Shown: positions 53,866 through 61,959 of the stretch, piece by piece
Numbering within the stretch: the stretch's first letter is position 1
How the letters are laid out: each line of letters begins with the position of its first letter
DNA from: Myxococcota bacterium
GTDB taxonomy: Bacteria; Myxococcota_A; UBA9160; JAFDDA01
NCBI GenBank assembly: GCA_965228475.1
Contig: OZ245817.1
Coordinates: forward strand, 1,472,001-1,536,000
Reading direction: 5' to 3'
DNA: 64,000 nucleotides
The notes under the pieces: generated by a model
What the model was told of the DNA's origin: nothing
The model's database searches: none
The model's input: the letters and a program-made list of their open reading frames with translations, nothing else
Program-made: the position numbers and the translations under genes

Positions 53866-54609
53866 CTACTTCTTGCCGCCGTAGCTCGAGCCCGGCCCGT
53901 AGCTCTTGCCCTTGCTCCCGCCGAGGGGCGGCGTCGGGTGGCTCGGGATCTCCGGAATGCTCGGGATGTCGGGCAGGAGCCCGCGCTGGCCGGGGTTGCT
54001 CGTCGGGAGGCCCTGGTCCTGGGCGTTGAGCGGCGCCTTCTTCTTGGCGGCCCCCGCGGCCTTCTTCCGGGCCGCCTTCTTGCCGCTGCCCCTGGGCGGT
54101 GCGCTCCCCGCGCCGCCCTTGCCCTCGGCGTTCTTCGGATTGACCGTGCCCTTGCCCTTGCGGATGTCGCGCTTGCCCCACTGGACGTCGTCGAGGTCGA
54201 TCTTGCCGTCCTCGTTCTTGACCTTGAGCTTGCCCTTCACCTTCGTCTTCTTCACGGTGATGTTGTTCTTCCCGAGCTCGTCCTTGACTTCGACGTCCTT
54301 CGGGCCGGAGAGACCCCGCACCTCGACGTTGTCGTCGCCGCCGCGCAGGTTGACCTTGAGCTTCCCCGTCACCTTCTTGCCGGTGGTGTGGCTCTTGCCG
54401 CCGTTCACCTTCGTCGTGCCGTTGCCCTTCACGGTGATCGTGCCGTTCTTGTTCTGGGTGATGGTGACGTCGTCCTTGCCGGCGCCGCCGTTGACGCGCA
54501 GGCCGCCCTTGCCGTCGACCTGGCCGACCTGGACGTCCGCCAGGGCGGGCGCCCCCAGGAGCAGTGCGAGGCTCATCCAAAAAGCGAAGTGTGCATGGGC
54601 TCGGCTCAT
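53866..54609 (-). CDS. Exported Lys-rich protein with beta-solenoid-like repeats
   Basis: Signal peptide ending PALA; strand-like repeats (GKDDVTIT, GKLKVNLRGGDDNVEV, GKLKVKN); KKAA-rich linker and Pro-rich tail. Confidence 0.75.
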   Translation of the reverse strand: MSRAHAHFAFWMSLALLLGAPALADVQVGQVDGKGGLRVNGGAGKDDVTITQNKNGTITVKGNGTTKVNGGKSHTTGKKVTGKLKVNLRGGDDNVEVRGLSGPKDVEVKDELGKNNITVKKTKVKGKLKVKNEDGKIDLDDVQWGKRDIRKGKGTVNPKNAEGKGGAGSAPPRGSGKKAARKKAAGAAKKKAPLNAQDQGLPTSNPGQRGLLPDIPSIPEIPSHPTPPLGGSKGKSYGPGSSYGGKK

Positions 54610-54702
54610 GGGATCCCCCGCGGTGGTCGAGAACATCGCGCGCCGGCGCTCGCGAACAGGGAGAGCATCGCGTCTCCATGGCCGCTCGTCTACCGTTCGG
54701 CC

Positions 54703-55740
54703 ATGCGCCGCTTCGCCGCCATCGTTCTCGCCCTCGTCGCGACGCTGGCGCTCCTCGAGCTGGGGGCGATCGCCCTGGCTCGCTCGGACGTCCTGGTCGT
54801 GCCGCGTCCGCATCACGGGAACACCGGTTTCTGGTGGCACGATCACCCCACCTTCGGTGCCTGGCACCATCCGGACAGTGAGGGCGATCACAACGGCGCC
54901 TGCTACAAGGCCCGCTACGAGACGAACGACGTCGGCGCCCGGGACGTCGATCGCCCCGAGCGCGCGGCGTCGCGCCGGGTGGTGGTGCTGGGCGACTCCT
55001 TCCTCGAGGGCTACGGCGTCAACGCCGAGAACCGCTTCTCGAACCTGCTCGAGCGCGAGACCGGCGTCCCGCACCTGAACTTCGCCATGGCGGGCTTCGG
55101 GCCGTACCAGCAGCTCCTCGTCTACGAGGCGCTCGCGAAGCGCTACGACCACGAGGCCGTGATCGTCTCGATCTTTCCCGGGAACGACTTCGCGGATCTC
55201 GACCCCCGCGAGTGCGCGGCCCTCGGAGACCCGGACTACTGCTATCGGCCGTTCCTGGTGGACTCGGGGGATGGGTTCGAGCATCACGTGCGGCGGGAGT
55301 CGGGGCTTCGCAGGCAGCTGCGTCTGCACAGCCAGGCGTGGAACGCCCTCGCGGCGGTCGCGCGCGGTCGCGCTGCGCAGGAGGCCGGCGGGACGGGCTC
55401 GCGCTTCTACGACTTCGCGGCGGAGAACCAGGCGGTGCTCGAGGCGGTGCTCGATCGCTTCGTGACGGCGGCCGCGGGCAAGGAGCTCGTCCTGCTGCTC
55501 ATCCCGAAGGCGTCCGATCTCGCGGCCTTCCTCGAGCGCGGGCCCGCACCGCTCTCGGGCTGGCTCGCCGGCTGGGCCGAGCGCAACGGCGCCGCGCTCG
55601 TGGACCTCCTCCCCGCGATGGCGCAGCACTCCCGCCGCTGGGACCCGTACTACCTGGCCTGCGACTTTCACTGGAGTCCGTACGGGAACCGCGTCGCGAG
55701 CGAACTCTTCTTGAAGCAGCTCGCGGGCTGGGGCGGCTAG
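54703..55740 (+). CDS. SGNH/GDSL hydrolase-like exported protein
   Basis: N-terminal TM helix; VLGDSF, GND and DFHW blocks. Confidence 0.82.
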   Translation: MRRFAAIVLALVATLALLELGAIALARSDVLVVPRPHHGNTGFWWHDHPTFGAWHHPDSEGDHNGACYKARYETNDVGARDVDRPERAASRRVVVLGDSFLEGYGVNAENRFSNLLERETGVPHLNFAMAGFGPYQQLLVYEALAKRYDHEAVIVSIFPGNDFADLDPRECAALGDPDYCYRPFLVDSGDGFEHHVRRESGLRRQLRLHSQAWNALAAVARGRAAQEAGGTGSRFYDFAAENQAVLEAVLDRFVTAAAGKELVLLLIPKASDLAAFLERGPAPLSGWLAGWAERNGAALVDLLPAMAQHSRRWDPYYLACDFHWSPYGNRVASELFLKQLAGWGG

Positions 55741-55745
55741 CCCGC

Positions 55746-56519
55746 TCAGCGCTTGCGGGCCTTCGCCTTCTTTCCCGGCGGGGCCGGGCGCGCGGCCTCG
55801 CTGTGGGGCGCCGGCTTCCTGCGCTCGGGATGGACGCAGATCTGGTCGACCAGGAGCGCGAACGCCCGCGCCTCGTAGTCGAGCTCTTCCAGCACGTCGA
55901 GTCCGAGCAGGTAGGCGTGGATGCGGAACGTGTTCAGACCGATGAAGCGCCAGGCGATGAGGTCGCAGTCGAGATCGGGGAGGAACTCTCCGTTCTCGAC
56001 GCCTTCCTCGAGGATCTGGCGCACCATGTCCGCGTTGCGCTCGACCGAGGCCTTCACGAAGCCCGCGAGCTCCCGGTCCGATTGCAGCTCCGTCACGACG
56101 AGGGCGTTGAAGATCGCGCGATCGCCGAGCCCGCGGGAGCGGACGGCCTCGCCGAGCGCCCAGAGGCGGTCCCGGGTGGTGGAGGTGGCGTCCCGCGAGC
56201 GCGCCAGGTCGATCGTGTTGGGGCCGACGGTCCAGGCCACCGCCGCGCGGATCAGCTCCACGCGGCTTCCGAAGATCCGGTAGATCTGCGCCAGGGTGCA
56301 GTCCGCGCGCTCGGCGACGGCCCGCATGCTGACCTTGTGGATCGAGCCGCGCTTCACCGATTCCTCGACGAAGGCCACGAGGATCGAGGCGCTCCGGACC
56401 GCCGAGGGGACCCGCGAGCGGCGCTCCTTCCCGCTCGCCGTCTTCTTCCTGCTCGCCGTCGTCTTCCGCTTGCGCGCCGCCACGGAGGCATCTTCGGGGA
56501 TTTGTCGCACCGCTGCCAT
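55746..56519 (-). CDS. TetR family regulator with a basic N-terminal extension (start uncertain)
   Basis: VSMRAVAERADCTLAQIYRIFGSR HTH; ILEEGVENGEF. Confidence 0.8.
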   Translation of the reverse strand: MAAVRQIPEDASVAARKRKTTASRKKTASGKERRSRVPSAVRSASILVAFVEESVKRGSIHKVSMRAVAERADCTLAQIYRIFGSRVELIRAAVAWTVGPNTIDLARSRDATSTTRDRLWALGEAVRSRGLGDRAIFNALVVTELQSDRELAGFVKASVERNADMVRQILEEGVENGEFLPDLDCDLIAWRFIGLNTFRIHAYLLGLDVLEELDYEARAFALLVDQICVHPERRKPAPHSEAARPAPPGKKAKARKR

Positions 56520-56554
56520 TCCCGGCGAGGGGCCCGGCGGCGGGCCCCCGCGCC

Positions 56555-58621
56555 TCAGTTCGTTCCGTTGTCCTCTTCCGCCGGCACGAGTTCGAGGAAG
56601 AGGCCCGTGAAGCCCTGATCCCGGACCGACTCCACCGGGCCGAGGCCGAAGCCGAGCAGCGTCGGGAGATCGAAGGCGGCGATGGCGTTGGTGAGCTTCG
56701 GGAGGATCTCCTGCTCGAGGAAGCTGCCGTTGGCGATGAAGAGATCCACCAGGGCCGTCGGCGGAATCCACTGGGCGAGCGGCGTGGTCAGGTAGGCCTC
56801 GATGGTGGTGAAGCTCGCATCGGGGGCGCACGTCGGCGTCCCGCTGCACGTCTCGATGTCGAACTCGAGCTTCGTGTCGGGGACGAAGCCCGGCGGATAG
56901 ATCACGCCGCCGGCGTACGGGTCGTCGATCACGGCCGAGATCCCGCCGTTCAGGCGGAGGATGCCGCGCACCAGAAGCGCCGGGCCGCGCCGGAGCTCCA
57001 TCACCATTCCGGCCAGCTGCAGCGCGGATTGAGAGGTCAGCGGCCCGGCGCTGCCGGTCAGGATCGGCGCGGCGGTCGGGGAGTAGCGAATGGACATCGC
57101 GTCCGTGGGGGCGATGTCGTTCTGGAGCTCCGGCGGGATCGTCCCGAAGAGGCAGGCGCCCGTCAGGGTGGGGGAGCCCGTCGGCGTCCCATCGTCGCAG
57201 CTCGGGTCTTCCGTGATCTCCCCGGAGAGGCCGCCGGTCTCCACGAAGCCTGCGAAGAGCTGGTTCATGAAGCTGTCCGAGAGGCCGATTCCGAGGTCGA
57301 AGGGCAGGGCGCCCGGCGAGAGTGCTCCCCAGACCGGCGGGCTCACCGGAACGCGGAAGCGCTCGGGGGGCAGCGCCGGGCACGCACCGTCGAAGAGCTG
57401 CCCCTGGGCGCAGAGCGTGTCGTTCGCCACCGCAGCGGTGTCCACCATGTAGCGGATGCCGTCGACGTCCTCGTCGATCGCGACGATCGAGGAGTTCAGG
57501 TCCATCATGAGCGTGGGTTCGATGGCCTGGGCGATGCCGAGCGCGTTGATCTCGGCTTCGACCGCGTCCGCGATCACCGAGCCGCCGCCCGGCGGGTTCA
57601 GGCTGTCGGCGACGAGGGTGAGCGCGCTCGCCTCGAAGTCCGCGCCGAGCGTGCCGACCAGATAGGCCTCGAAGGTGCTGTAGGCGCAGGGTCCCAGCGT
57701 GAAGTCGACGGTGAAGGTGCCGAAGGCGACGGCGAGGTTCGTCTGGGTGACGTCGATCTGGGGGCTCGCCGGGGTCTGATCGAGCTGCGCATCGACCATG
57801 AGCGGGTCGATGGTGACGGTGCCTTCGCAGTAGATGAGCGGCGCGCCCGGCGGCGTGAACGGGTCGTGCAGCTTGAAGTCGACCTCGAGGGCCGGCAGCG
57901 CGACGCCGAGATGGGTCACGCCGGCGCTCGGCGTGATGTCCACGCTCGGTTCTCCGTGGGTGACGGTCTCCACGAACACGTCGATCGGAAGGCCGCCTTC
58001 CGTGACGCAATCCTGGGTCGGGTCGATCTCGGGGAAGCAAAGACCGCCGAAGCTCGTGCCCTCGAGGGCCGTGAGATCGAGGCTCCCCGTCACGGTGGGC
58101 GCGACGAAGTCGGCGATGGCGTCGAGACCCGGCTGGGCCAGGCGGAGCGCGATCCCGTTCTCCGTCGATGCGTTCCACTGTTCGCCCGGATCCTCGCCGA
58201 CGACGAGGGTGACGTGGGCGCGGCGCTGGAAGGCGTTGTTGGTCGAGTCCGTCAGTACCGCGATCACCGTGTTCAGGTGGGGCTCCGCGTCGGCGCCCGG
58301 GACCCGGTAGTCGATCGGGACGGCCGCGCTGAAGGTGACCGGGTTGGTGTCGTGGACGGTCGCCTGGATCGGGCTGCCGAGAATTCCGTTCACGTAGAGC
58401 TCGACGACCGCGTCGGCGGCGGCGAGGCCCTCGTAGCGGAACTTCCCGGTCACCAGGACGTCGTCGCTCGGGCTTCCGGGGGTCGGCGAGGAAAGCTCGT
58501 GGAAGCTGCCCATGGCCGGCGAGTCGAACTTCAGCGGCACGTTCGTGCTGCACGCTCCCATTCCGGAGTAGAGGCCTGCCAGGACGGTCAGGGCGGCGAA
58601 CGCCCAGCGCTGCACGCTCAT
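56555..58621 (-). CDS. Large lipoprotein: Ig-like domain plus putative BPI/LBP (TULIP) fold
   Basis: AAGGAG RBS; lipobox-like MGAC; GIALRLAQPGLDAI and LGIGLSDSFMNQLF segments. Confidence 0.7.
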   Translation of the reverse strand: MSVQRWAFAALTVLAGLYSGMGACSTNVPLKFDSPAMGSFHELSSPTPGSPSDDVLVTGKFRYEGLAAADAVVELYVNGILGSPIQATVHDTNPVTFSAAVPIDYRVPGADAEPHLNTVIAVLTDSTNNAFQRRAHVTLVVGEDPGEQWNASTENGIALRLAQPGLDAIADFVAPTVTGSLDLTALEGTSFGGLCFPEIDPTQDCVTEGGLPIDVFVETVTHGEPSVDITPSAGVTHLGVALPALEVDFKLHDPFTPPGAPLIYCEGTVTIDPLMVDAQLDQTPASPQIDVTQTNLAVAFGTFTVDFTLGPCAYSTFEAYLVGTLGADFEASALTLVADSLNPPGGGSVIADAVEAEINALGIAQAIEPTLMMDLNSSIVAIDEDVDGIRYMVDTAAVANDTLCAQGQLFDGACPALPPERFRVPVSPPVWGALSPGALPFDLGIGLSDSFMNQLFAGFVETGGLSGEITEDPSCDDGTPTGSPTLTGACLFGTIPPELQNDIAPTDAMSIRYSPTAAPILTGSAGPLTSQSALQLAGMVMELRRGPALLVRGILRLNGGISAVIDDPYAGGVIYPPGFVPDTKLEFDIETCSGTPTCAPDASFTTIEAYLTTPLAQWIPPTALVDLFIANGSFLEQEILPKLTNAIAAFDLPTLLGFGLGPVESVRDQGFTGLFLELVPAEEDNGTN

Positions 58622-58634
58622 GTCGGACTCCTTC

Positions 58635-58762
58635 GATATCATTAGATATCTTTTATTGATCTCTTGAGTGATATAAAACTTATATAAATCAATTATTTAA
58701 AGATCGAAAAGAACCACTGGAAACAATCTATCACAGATTTTGATTGCAAACGTTATCAATTG
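58635..58762. promoter_or_regulatory. AT-rich divergent control region with an IHF-consensus site
   Basis: 30 G+C in 120 nt (58641-58760); AATCAAttatTTA at 58687-58699 matches WATCAA-N4-TTR; several short palindromes. Confidence 0.7.
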
Positions 58763-58809
58763 AGCGTAGATCGGTTTTCGACGGGCTTCGCCCCGGGGAG
58801 GAGGATTCG

Positions 58810-60822
58810 ATGCCGACTGGGCTTCGTTCACTGCCGATTGGGCTTCGTTCGCTGCGGACTGGGCTTCGTTCGCGGATCTTGTTGTTGGCGCTGGCGTTCG
58901 GCGCGACCGGTTACAACTGTGGCGCGCCGCCGTCCATCTACATCTCTTCGCCGACCAGCGGCGCGTTCCACATCCTCTCGGCCTACGGCCCGAACATCAC
59001 CGTCGACGGCCAGCTGAACTGCCTGCCGACGACGGGCGTCGAGGTGCGCCTGTGGTGGGACGAGGTCGGCCCCGACTCCCAGGCCGTCCTGGCGAGCGTC
59101 GCGCCCTCGACGCTCTTCACGGCCACGATGCCGGTGCCCACCGACGGGAAGGTGCTCCACACGATCATCGCCGAGGTCCGCTACGGGCCGGCGCTCTCGC
59201 TCTCGCGGCGTCACAGCGTGGTCGTGCACGTCGTCGACTACACGTCGAACGTCGGGACCGGCGACGACTTCACCACCCTGATCCGCCTGACGGACCTCGG
59301 CCTCGACGAGATGGAGCCCGCGCTCTCCGCCCAGGCCTCGGCGGCCTTCGACCTGAACGCGACCCTCCAGTGGCAGGACCTGCTGAACGGGACGGAGCCC
59401 TGCTTCGTCAACGGCCCGTTCGGCAGCTGCTTCGGACGCCTCCACCAGGCGTTGGTCACCAACGCTTCGATCGGCAGCGTCGGCGTCGAGCTCGACGCCG
59501 TTTCGGGCGCCGTCGCGACGGACATCGCGCTTTCGGACATCGACCTGAACGCCCAGCTCCAAGGGAAGCTGGCCGGCTTCGGCTTCACGTGCGACGCCGC
59601 CCTCAACACGGACGAGGCGGACCTCGACGTGGAGATGGACCTCGAGAAGGACCCGGCGGATCCGAGCCGGCTGATCGTGGTGCAGAACGGGAACGTGGGG
59701 GTCGGCCCGCTGAACTTCCTCGCCCTGGACCTGAACTGCTCCGGCGTGATCGGCGGCGTCCTCGGCAACCTGTTCGACACCGTCACGGACTCTCCCGAGA
59801 CGCTCGAGCGGGTCCAGACCGGCCTCGCAGACATGATCAACTCGAACCTCGTGCTCGCGGACGGCTTTCAGGATGCCCTCGACGAGATCGCGCTCGCAGA
59901 CGCGATCGGAACGTCGCTCGGCATGGACCTGGGCGTCACGCTCGGCGGCGATCCGCTGATCAACGGCACGGGGATCTCGGTTGTGGCCGGAATCGACCCC
60001 CAGCCGACCACCACCGAGTGCAGCCCCGGCAACCCGCTCGCCGGCAACGGCTGGGCCTGCCAGGCGCTCCCCGACACGGTCTTCCTCGCGAACAGCGGCG
60101 GCAACTTCTGGGGATGGGACGACACGGCGCCGAGCGGTCCGAGCTACGACGTCGGCGTCGGGATCGAAGATACGGCGCTGAACCTGCTGCTCCGGGCGGT
60201 CGCCGAGCAGGGCAAGCTCTCGCGGCGGGTCACGTCCCTCCCGGGAATCCCCGGGAACCTCACCTGGGACGCCCTGATCAGTCCGGCGGGCTGCGCCGCC
60301 ATCGGGATGCCCTGTTCGGACCGGGTCGACATCAAGATCTCGCCCGTCGTGGCGCCCTTGGTCCGGGGCAACGCCGGAATCGGCGGTTCGATCACCGACC
60401 TCGTGTTCCAGCTGAACCTCGAGTTCGCGACGCCCGGGTTCAACGCGTCCTACGACGTCCCGCGGCTGACGATGCTCCTGACCGTCGAAGCGGGGCTCGA
60501 CCTCGTCGTTGCCAACGACGAGCTGGGCTTCGAGTTCAAGCTCTGCGACCCCGAGCCGTGCACGCCGAACTTCGACCTGAACGCGATCTACACGTTCTTT
60601 CCGAACGTCTCGATCGGTCCGCGTCTGATCGACGGCGTCTTCATCGGCCAGCCCGACATCCAGGACGCCGTGACGGATCTGCTCACCACGAGCCTCGCGA
60701 GCGCCATCCAGGGCTTCCCGTTGCCGGAGTTCCAGGGGCAGACGCTCACGCCCATCACGATCGAGCGCGAGGGAACGCTCTCGACCACGACGGGATACAT
60801 GACGGTGTTCGGGGACCTCTAG
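58810..60822 (+). CDS. Large lipoprotein paralog: Ig-like domain plus putative BPI/LBP (TULIP) fold
   Basis: GGAGGAGG RBS; signal peptide ending GYNC; TLIRLTDLGLDEM and VGVGIEDTALNLLL segments are collinear with the divergent gene. Confidence 0.7.
   Translation: MPTGLRSLPIGLRSLRTGLRSRILLLALAFGATGYNCGAPPSIYISSPTSGAFHILSAYGPNITVDGQLNCLPTTGVEVRLWWDEVGPDSQAVLASVAPSTLFTATMPVPTDGKVLHTIIAEVRYGPALSLSRRHSVVVHVVDYTSNVGTGDDFTTLIRLTDLGLDEMEPALSAQASAAFDLNATLQWQDLLNGTEPCFVNGPFGSCFGRLHQALVTNASIGSVGVELDAVSGAVATDIALSDIDLNAQLQGKLAGFGFTCDAALNTDEADLDVEMDLEKDPADPSRLIVVQNGNVGVGPLNFLALDLNCSGVIGGVLGNLFDTVTDSPETLERVQTGLADMINSNLVLADGFQDALDEIALADAIGTSLGMDLGVTLGGDPLINGTGISVVAGIDPQPTTTECSPGNPLAGNGWACQALPDTVFLANSGGNFWGWDDTAPSGPSYDVGVGIEDTALNLLLRAVAEQGKLSRRVTSLPGIPGNLTWDALISPAGCAAIGMPCSDRVDIKISPVVAPLVRGNAGIGGSITDLVFQLNLEFATPGFNASYDVPRLTMLLTVEAGLDLVVANDELGFEFKLCDPEPCTPNFDLNAIYTFFPNVSIGPRLIDGVFIGQPDIQDAVTDLLTTSLASAIQGFPLPEFQGQTLTPITIEREGTLSTTTGYMTVFGDL
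58813..58875 (+). repeat. Three 21-bp tandem repeats in the signal-peptide n-region
   Basis: ccgactgggcttcgttcactg / ccgattgggcttcgttcgctg / cggactgggcttcgttcgcgg. Confidence 0.9.
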
Positions 60823-60849: not shown

Positions 60850-61959
60850 ATGGATGTTGTCGTTCGAAGAAGGGTCGTCGCGCAATGGGGGTTCCTCGCG
60901 CTGCTCCTGGCGTCGTTCCTGCTGCCGGGCTCGGCCCGCGCCTACACGATCGGAGCGGCCGAGGGCACGAACACCGCGACGCAGCTCGAGCTCCGGCTCA
61001 CGCTCTGGGACGACGGGAACCCGCTGCAGGCCGTCTTCCACGAGACGGGCTGTGAGCCGGACGAAGATTGCCCGTTCTCCCTGACGCTCGGGGTCGCGCC
61101 GGTCTTCGTGTTCGGGCCGGGCGGAAGCTTCGGGACCTTCGACTTCTCCGCGACCCTGCGGCACGAAGGCTCGGCGGAGTCCGTGCAGTTCTCGGGCTAC
61201 GGGCACGAACTCGGCACGCACCCGCTCGACGTAGCGGGTCCCTTCTGGCAGCAGGTGAGCTTTCACCTCGCCGAAGGGCCGGGCGAGTCCTACCTGACGG
61301 TCTCGGCCACGGTCCCCGAGCCGCGCTCCCTCGCGCTGCTCGGTCTCGCGGGGATCGTCTTCGTGCTTCTGCGCCATGCGTTCCCCCCGCGTCGCCGGAG
61401 GGGGTTCCGGGGGGCTCTCCAGCCGGCGAGGCCGGGTGCCACCGTCGCCGCGTGCTTCCTCGCGGCGGCGGTCGGCCTCCCCGGCACCGCCCGGGCCTTC
61501 ACGGTCGACGTCGTTTCGCTGACGAACGAGCCGGGTCTGTTCGCAGCCGTCGTCCGGGTGCTCCACGACGGAAACGCGGACCCGCTCGAGGCGCGCATCT
61601 CCGGCTGCGTCCCGGACGTCCCGAGTGATGCGTGCCCCTTCACCCTGAACCTCCAGGTCTGGCCCGTGCCGATCCTGCCCGGCGTCTTCGACTTCCAGGT
61701 GATCGGCAACCTCGCGCACGTCGACTCGGCCTTCGCGCCCGCCTTCGAGCTGCACAACCACGATCCCCAGATCGGCACCGAGATCGTGCTCGGCCAGGAC
61801 GAGGTGTGGCAGACCTGGAGCCTCGGCTGGGACGGCGCCACGCGATTCGAGCTCGTCGCGACGGCGGCCGTCCCCGAGCCGCAGCTCGCGGTCCTGACCG
61901 CGGCCCTCGCTGCGACCTTCGGGTTGCGCCGCAGGCGCAGGGAGCCGCGTCCGGTATGA
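60850..61959 (+). CDS. Double PEP-CTERM protein (two signal-domain-VPEP units in one ORF)
   Basis: Signal ...PGSARA, domain 1, VPEP-TM-RRRR, second signal ...PGTARA, domain 2, VPEP-TM-RRRRR. Confidence 0.8.
   Translation: MDVVVRRRVVAQWGFLALLLASFLLPGSARAYTIGAAEGTNTATQLELRLTLWDDGNPLQAVFHETGCEPDEDCPFSLTLGVAPVFVFGPGGSFGTFDFSATLRHEGSAESVQFSGYGHELGTHPLDVAGPFWQQVSFHLAEGPGESYLTVSATVPEPRSLALLGLAGIVFVLLRHAFPPRRRRGFRGALQPARPGATVAACFLAAAVGLPGTARAFTVDVVSLTNEPGLFAAVVRVLHDGNADPLEARISGCVPDVPSDACPFTLNLQVWPVPILPGVFDFQVIGNLAHVDSAFAPAFELHNHDPQIGTEIVLGQDEVWQTWSLGWDGATRFELVATAAVPEPQLAVLTAALAATFGLRRRRREPRPV

Follow-up and report, generated by a model that had tools for sequence, protein, structure and literature searches.

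A divergent pair of predicted BPI-like double-TULIP proteins and a linked TetR-family regulator in a Myxococcota bacterium

Introduction

BPI, LBP and CETP play central parts in the innate immunity and lipid transport of humans, and the characterisation of their bacterial relatives is just beginning, with a single system, TipA/TipB, studied so far. A locus in the genome of a Myxococcota bacterium raises the question of what such proteins may do when two of them, diverged from one another, are encoded side by side on opposite strands. The locus lies in a window of 64,000 nucleotides (nt) with about 70% guanine plus cytosine (GC), positions 1,472,001 to 1,536,000 of contig OZ245817.1 (assembly GCA_965228475.1), this being the single contig, of 5,006,157 nt, of the genome that we call G000. 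Its two genes, A and B, are written A1 and B1 when set beside their paralogs in the same genome, and residues are numbered from open reading frames (ORFs) of 695 amino acids (aa) for A and 692 aa for B. A preliminary description of the locus had likened both proteins to BPI, LBP and CETP, had read both as lipoproteins, and had suggested a neighbouring TetR as their regulator. The results presented here concern the fold of the two proteins, their export and anchoring, the organisation and control of the pair, and what the pair might do at the cell envelope.

Results

Predicted fold and relation to BPI and LBP

AlphaFold2, run on a family alignment of 88 rows, returned confident models of A (predicted local distance difference test, pLDDT, 88.3; predicted template modelling score, pTM, 0.84) and of B (pLDDT 86.9; pTM 0.83), for both of which BPI was the best structural match. 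With A as the Foldseek query, BPI came first at an expectation value (E) of 8.6e-21, followed by LBP, CETP, P47/OrfX and SPLUNC1, and residues 161-688 of the model align with residues 2-456 of BPI. The models contain two tandem barrels and a central sheet and align with BPI over its full length, which is the arrangement of a double TULIP. As modelled, the fold of A and B is that of the two-barrel TULIP proteins of the BPI/LBP/CETP type. The preliminary description had inferred such a fold and named AlphaFold with Foldseek as the check; BPI at the top of the list and a two-barrel model bear the inference out, and the family profile adds a second, independent line.

Compared with the PDB, the 88-row profile retrieved mouse LBP (4m4d; E 4.4e-8) and human BPI (E 1.8e-4), and the next row was noise (E 1.1). 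Both matches span the C-terminal barrel, chain residues 256-455. The second of two motifs that the preliminary description had compared with BPI (LGIGLSDSFMNQLF...) is vindicated by HMMER, which aligns this stretch with BPI from residue 256 ('LGLSDYFFN...'). The first motif (GIALRLAQPGLDAI, A residues 160-173) does sit at the start of the structural alignment, where model residue 161 falls on BPI residue 2, although the counterpart segment of BPI is not displayed by any alignment. Taken together, the AlphaFold2/Foldseek and profile results mean that the structural claim holds for both barrels, and that homology to LBP and BPI at the level of sequence holds for the C-terminal barrel.

PF02886 (LBP_BPI_CETP_C) was matched by four of the 57 homologues scanned, one of them above the curated cut-off (33.6 vs 23 bits), and by neither A nor B at E<=1. 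Neither the N-terminal counterpart, PF01273, nor the Pfam model of DUF4403 matched A or B (E<=1) or any of the 57 homologues (E<=1e-3). One ESM-Atlas cluster carries PF01273 on 21% of its members (score 0.87), which we regard as a lead only, and a direct sequence search of the PDB gave one row for A, at E 1.6, and zero rows for B.

Gene models, domain order and export

The probable start of gene A is the ATG at 58621, preceded by an AAGGAG box and in agreement with a 688-aa database form (P0004); that of gene B is the ATG at 58810, which follows a GGAGGAGG box and agrees with a 670-aa form (P0105). As paralogs, A and B align collinearly (BLASTP 55.5 bits, E 4e-12, 22% identity over 553 columns), and they are transcribed divergently, head to head, just as the preliminary description had drawn them at about 680 aa each. 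The n-region of the B signal peptide is made of three tandem 21-nt repeats (58813-58875, +), coding (P/I/T)GLRS(L/R) three times; a terminator scan found one terminator-like hairpin, which lies inside these repeats and is within chance expectation. Four 41-aa fragments from short contigs fall in the database cluster of B.

In both models an immunoglobulin (Ig)/Fn3-like domain, already proposed for each protein in the preliminary description, stands directly before the first strand and helix A of the N-terminal barrel; in A, seven residues lead from its end to the first TULIP strand. The fold of this sandwich matches Fn3/Glucodextran_B and not C2.

An alignment of A and B sequences (10 rows) contains six invariant cysteines, one at the end of the signal peptide and five more, the latter fitting an oxidising compartment. 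In the 88-row family alignment, which includes 25 rows lacking the N-terminus, the signal-end Cys is found in 58 rows; in 45 it directly follows the N-terminal hydrophobic stretch, and 18 of these 45 have a canonical-like lipobox by regular expression. Measured against the pattern [LVI][ASTVI][GAS]C, the M-G-A-C of A is acceptable. In BPI-like proteins the first TULIP strand is located at the centre of the molecule. The Ig domain follows the anchor with hardly any linker and is attached at the middle of the boomerang, for which reason the proteins probably lie along one membrane and do not bridge two; if lipidated, A and B would, on these models, be held near one membrane by their middle.

A family with three divergent pairs in one genome

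Exhaustive searching with phmmer found 100 cluster representatives of the family at E<=1e-3 among 1.84 billion; a word-indexed homologue search with B returned only B itself among 8000 scored candidates. Pfam architectures were scanned for 57 of the 100 representatives, 29 of which have an N-terminal Glucodextran_B Ig-like domain; fusions to DUF4215, EGF, laminin-G, lectin, or TSP3/dockerin modules occur in others. The ESM-Atlas clusters that come nearest are mostly from Myxococcota. The taxonomic distribution, which the preliminary description had listed for checking, can now be given: counting G000 each time, the family occurs in 57 of 193 genomes of the order (E<=1e-30), 58 of 225 of the class (E<=1e-40) and 23 of 401 in an even sample of the phylum (E<=1e-20).

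G000 itself encodes eleven paralogs, ten of them matches to A and one more distant. Of these, A1-A3 form an A clade and B1-B3 a B clade, the others being single 'S' genes. The members of the two clades form three divergent A|B pairs, at 1016700-1020963, 1528555-1532822 (the pair of the window) and 4200995-4205345, and in all three A stands head to head with B. Identities are 37% (A1-A2), 36% (A2-A3) and 30% (A1-A3) within A, 36% (B1-B2), 31% (B2-B3) and 28% (B1-B3) within B, and 22-28% between A and B. A quick tree supports the A clade at 99, the B clade at 96 and the split of A+B from S at 100 (Shimodaira-Hasegawa-like approximate likelihood ratio test). By sequence, A and B are separate clades, and one genome holds three divergent pairs of them. 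Among the genomes searched, A/B-type genes were found in G000 only (687-793 bits vs <=286 bits elsewhere). Three A-type (P0005, P0006, P0008) and three B-type relatives (P0009, P0012, P0013) are present in other assemblies, on contigs of 4.5-13 kb; metagenome scans with an alignment of B2 and P0012, and with P0009, found no relative.

Other members of the family in G000 have features of their own. The eleventh paralog (3334634-3336769, +; 711 aa, no Pfam match) was overlooked by single-protein genome searches and is joined to the family profile by hhalign (probability 99.96%, E 4e-39); divergently upstream of it lies a gene for a secreted GDSL-like lipase (31.3 bits, cut-off 32.9). S4 is a 996-aa member with PKD domains at its C-terminus, flanked by small PEP-CTERM proteins and by two TetR genes (4417834-4418490, -, and 4421676-4422341, +; TetR_N 46.5 and 42 bits). 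A2 is directly followed, on the same strand, by a gene for a 2270-aa SpvB/FG-GAP/RHS-repeat protein (1021120-1027932, +).

The TetR regulator and the shared spacer

The TetR of the preliminary description is a real gene. Its product gives eight TetR rows in Pfam, with TetR_N at 23.5 bits (cut-off 24), TetR_C_11 at E 5.8e-6 and six TetR_C rows in all, and it matches TetR, KstR and KstR2 chains in the PDB (E 3.5e-6 to 1.4e-3). Among solved structures an unnamed TetR (E 3.5e-6) comes closest, together with KstR and KstR2 (E 2e-4 to 1e-3), which are repressors of the sterol pathway; these matches fall mostly within the DNA-binding domain and do not identify the ligand. A3 is likewise followed, after 584 nt, by a TetR gene (TetR_C_13 34.6 bits, cut-off 27). 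The TetRs past A1 and A3 share 33% identity (E 4e-32) and, of the 61 candidates that the genome offers, neither matches any but the other at E<=1e-5. As mutually closest paralogs in the same position after A, they indicate that TetR, A and B were duplicated together, which places the proposed TetR linkage on firmer ground for pairs 1 and 3.

The spacer between A1 and B1 is the sole 100-nt stretch of the 5,006,157-nt genome with a GC content of 30% or less, and in this genome of 70% GC only 11 islands of 40% or less exist. Three of the 11 lie directly upstream of family genes, namely A1|B1, S4 (4418488-4418600) and the eleventh paralog (3334477-3334614), and five of the ten islands other than A1|B1 abut TetR gene starts (that of S4 confirmed by Pfam, four by eye). 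AT-rich islands thus mark TetR-type control regions in G000, which fits the proposed regulation.

Imperfect palindromes occur in two of the divergent spacers. That of A3|B3, TGACCAAGTGATCATA-CAA-TATGTTCACATGGTCA, has 16-nt arms with 14/16 matches, a level reached by 1 of 500 shuffles, and it shares with the A1|B1 palindrome (Table 1) an AGTGAT core in the same AGTGAT-N4-spacer3 register. Across the genome, AGTGAT-N11-ATCACT occurs at 24 sites with <=2 mismatches, both spacers included. The two palindromes may be TetR operators.

Features of the locus and neighbouring genes

Table 1. Coordinates of the features of the locus within the window, with strand (. where none applies) and remarks
Feature	Position	Strand	Remarks
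Gene A (A1), 688-aa lipoprotein-type BPI-like double-TULIP protein	56555..58621	-	ORF up to 58642
A signal peptide, ending in lipobox-like M-G-A-C (Cys31; ...LYSGMGA-C31)	58550..58621	-	sequence reading
A Ig/Fn3-like beta-sandwich, residues 32-153	58184..58549	-	about 3 residues from Cys to first strand
A N-terminal TULIP barrel, residues 160-402	57437..58165	-	opens with motif 1; structural model
A Cys/Pro-rich linker between barrels, conserved, residues 403-449	57296..57436	-	invariant C411, C421; pLDDT 92-98, without regular structure
A C-terminal TULIP barrel, residues 450-688	56579..57295	-	opens with motif 2; profile and structural alignment
Gene B (B1), 670-aa BPI-like double-TULIP protein	58810..60822	+	ORF from TTG 58744
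B signal peptide, ending in non-canonical G-Y-N-C (Cys59; ...AFGATGYN-C59)	58810..58920	+	sequence reading
B Ig/Fn3-like domain, residues 62-165	58927..59238	+	
B N-terminal TULIP barrel, residues 174-416	59263..59991	+	
B C-terminal TULIP barrel, residues 470-692	60151..60819	+	structural model
Shared divergent control region	58622..58809	.	core 58640-58745, 25% GC
Imperfect palindrome TTGAGTGATATAA-AAC-TTATATAAATCAA, candidate TetR operator	58664..58692	.	13-nt arms, 85% complementary
Second palindrome ATTGCAAACGTTATCAAT	58743..58760	.	50 nt before the B ATG
TetR-family regulator, 257 aa	55746..56519	-	35 nt downstream of gene A, same strand
SGNH/GDSL-type acyl-hydrolase domain	54985..55740	+	convergent with the TetR gene; Lipase_GDSL_2 43.3 bits (cut-off 32.9), ALGX 32.7 (26.5)
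ORF with two PEP-CTERM-tagged modules	60850..61959	+	27 nt past B; PF07589 24.7 bits (cut-off 20.7)

SGNH/GDSL hydrolase genes adjoin two family loci and, with KstR and KstR2 as near solved relatives of the TetR, make up a weak lipid theme. The SGNH hydrolase ORF of the window has a long extension at its upstream end, and overlapping this on the opposite strand is a gene (53866-54700, -) whose secreted product of about 270 aa is rich in Lys and Gly, has a signal peptide and matches no Pfam model. The ORF past B and another elsewhere in G000 (4197019-4198656, -) each run without a stop through two full, in-frame modules that extend from signal peptide to PEP-CTERM tag.

Discussion

Relation to known TULIP systems

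Bacterial BPI-like double-TULIPs are already known as a kind, since DUF4403, the bacterial members of the BPI structural cluster and TipA/TipB are in print, and A and B are therefore not new in that sense. The preliminary description had named YceB and P47 as the bacterial TULIPs described, a statement that is outdated, these three being closer. The solved bacterial TULIPs YceB and P47/OrfX are much weaker matches, the former being a single barrel and the latter having another domain arrangement. From human BPI, LBP and CETP (PDB 1bp1/1ewf, 4m4d, 2obd; PF01273 and PF02886), with about 12-14% identity, A and B differ by an added N-terminal Ig-like domain, a lipoprotein-type Cys and more cysteines, by being bacterial, paired and TetR-linked, and by an N-terminal barrel without a significant sequence match.

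DUF4403 is a predicted bacterial pseudo-dimeric TULIP and mostly a predicted lipoprotein of diderms (Levine 2019, PMC6791001), and the BPI cluster of the 2023 structure clusters has bacterial members (PMC10584675). DUF4403 resembles A and B as a full-length BPI-like pseudo-dimer that is mostly a predicted lipoprotein, and differs in being another sequence family, of about 460 aa and without an Ig domain. For TipA/TipB of Bdellovibrio bacteriovorus, a preprint describes lipids in the lumen, binding to bilayers, a beta-sandwich adaptor, and Foldseek relatives fused to beta-rich domains (bioRxiv 10.1101/2025.09.09.675085). A TipA-like double-TULIP would be expected to have a beta-sandwich docked onto helix A and onto the sheet of its N-terminal barrel, and to dimerise via the N-terminal hairpin. 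TipB is a separate C2-like protein of the TipA operon, whereas the sandwich of A and B is Fn3/Glucodextran_B-like and fused N-terminally, and TipA is a secreted homodimer, whereas here two diverged paralogs stand on opposite strands with a TetR; TipA was absent from the PDB matches of the structural searches with A and B. The literature searched contained no paper on the Pfam-less Ig-plus-double-TULIP family. That literature describes neither the family itself nor its conserved divergent A|B pairs, the co-duplicated TetR and its candidate operators, or the extreme AT-rich spacer.

A proposed mechanism and the points that weigh against it

We propose, as a reasonably probable explanation, that A and B are exported, disulfide-bearing and probably lipid-anchored double-TULIPs, co-expressed under TetR, which move hydrophobic molecules at the membrane that tethers them. 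Both would be envelope proteins anchored through the signal-end Cys, each with an Ig-like domain right on the anchor, followed by a full double-TULIP module of two barrels, a central sheet and a Pro/Cys-rich linker. Expression of A and B would be driven together from the one shared, extremely AT-rich control region, which the operon's own TetR would repress through the palindromes until a small hydrophobic ligand releases the repression. At the tethering membrane the proteins would then pick up lipids or other hydrophobic molecules and pass them on, and the three A|B pairs would be specialised copies. The fused beta-sandwich may stand in for a separate adaptor such as TipB.

Several observations weigh against this explanation. 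With regard to the fold, the stretch of the profile that covers the N-terminal barrel (domain 1) is not significant against BPI/LBP, the Pfam scan of A and B gave no model at E<=1, and the NCBIfam scan gave a single spurious row of 13.9 bits, for B. With regard to the anchor, the preliminary description had seen a Cys lipoprotein-type signal in each protein; a hydrophobic N-terminus ending in Cys is indeed found in both, although the lipobox of B (G-Y-N-C) is non-canonical, and the lipidation of B is for that reason less certain than that of A. In 13 rows of the family alignment, moreover, other domains stand in front of the module, and the signal-end Cys, being internal, cannot be lipidated there; this suggests a second or alternative structural role, so that the Cys in the column of A Cys31 may also, or instead, be structural. 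With regard to control, the A1|B1 palindrome (11/13 matches) was reached by 15 of 500 shuffles and is marginal alone; the shared motif and the genome-wide scan are not independent, since the motif was derived from those two spacer sites; and a sigma-70 consensus scan of the spacer and the locus found 0 sites. In a mirror-tree comparison on the quick tree, the A copies and the B copies, three of each, branched in an unresolved or discordant order with weakly supported forks, and a genome of the same genus (G001, 89% complete) contained one S-type gene and no A/B-type gene that could be found. Beyond G000, a scan of 1.5-kb flanks with a home-made hidden Markov model built from nine TetRs of G000 found a TetR match beside one family gene (L038) in 32 loci, which represent 30 distinct places of other genomes. 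TetR adjacency as a family-wide trait outside G000 is accordingly rejected (1/30 distinct places).

Alternative explanations

An alternative that we consider unlikely, yet not negligible, is that A and B are a weapon or a foraging device directed at prey, released or exposed on the surface, which bind foreign lipopolysaccharide or outer-membrane lipids and permeabilise the membrane or extract lipids from it, which a predatory or scavenging myxobacterium would take up. BPI being the best structural match, the host genome belonging to the Myxococcota, the RHS/SpvB/FG-GAP protein encoded after A2 and the expansion of the family to 11 copies all agree with such a role, as does TipA, the one bacterial BPI-like double-TULIP characterised, which is reported to be predation-associated, secreted into prey and destabilising to bilayers (bioRxiv 10.1101/2025.09.09.675085). 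The Cys anchor and the linker-less Ig domain, however, speak for proteins tethered to the membrane of the cell that makes them. The surroundings of the three pairs showed no secretion-system gene, nothing indicates that the organism is predatory, and control by TetR is equally compatible with metabolite sensing.

It is also conceivable, though distinctly unlikely in our view, that the two paralogs are independent, the head-to-head layout being a relic of one inverted duplication that was later copied with its surroundings, with A and B acting separately and the TetRs regulating themselves or other genes. Single-copy members are the rule in the family, which occurs in 57 of 193 genomes of the order, the matches listed outside G000 include no divergent pair, pair 2 is without a TetR, and TetR genes are plentiful in G000 (61 first-look candidates). 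Against this, the layout has been kept in three copies despite divergence to 28-37% identity within the clades, the two TetRs are mutually closest and occupy the same position, and A-type and B-type relatives occur elsewhere in equal numbers (3 and 3). A role without lipid cargo, in which A and B would use their TULIP fold to scaffold PEP-CTERM surface proteins or exopolysaccharide or to adhere to them, appears highly improbable. The fusions of family members to lectin, laminin-G, EGF and dockerin domains would suit it, as would the PEP-CTERM genes found <=4 kb from 4 of 7 family loci, where 1.1 were expected (P ~0.013 under random placement; 91 tags by regular expression). That test overstates the association because PEP-CTERM genes are clustered, the PEP-CTERM-type neighbours of the family loci have no homology to one another, and, to our knowledge, no BPI-like or Takeout-like TULIP has been characterised that does not bind a hydrophobic ligand.

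The explanation that we favour, of tethered and co-expressed lipid-handling proteins, can also be taken further. A and B might form an obligate hetero-oligomer, each protein being pinned flat to the membrane by its linker-less Ig domain and joined to the next end to end or in an alternating array, in which at least four barrels make a long hydrophobic conduit, a lipid-sensing TetR gates expression and the three co-duplicated modules are cargo-specific; we hold this extension to be improbable. For A 160-666 and B 178-670, each trimmed of its last two strands, a complex prediction gave no answer (score 0.00, mark 0.32) and counts neither way. If the extension is true, the locus would encode a bacterial lipid-extraction machine without a described counterpart.

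Significance

Should A and B not work together, the locus would be one more unannotated member of a sizeable family, of 100 cluster representatives. The locus offers a compact and testable case, in which a diverged BPI-like pair has been kept divergent through three duplications, with a putative dedicated repressor and candidate operators. If the pair does work together, it would show how double-TULIP proteins are assembled and regulated in bacteria, and which lipids are moved across or along the envelope in uncultured Myxococcota.

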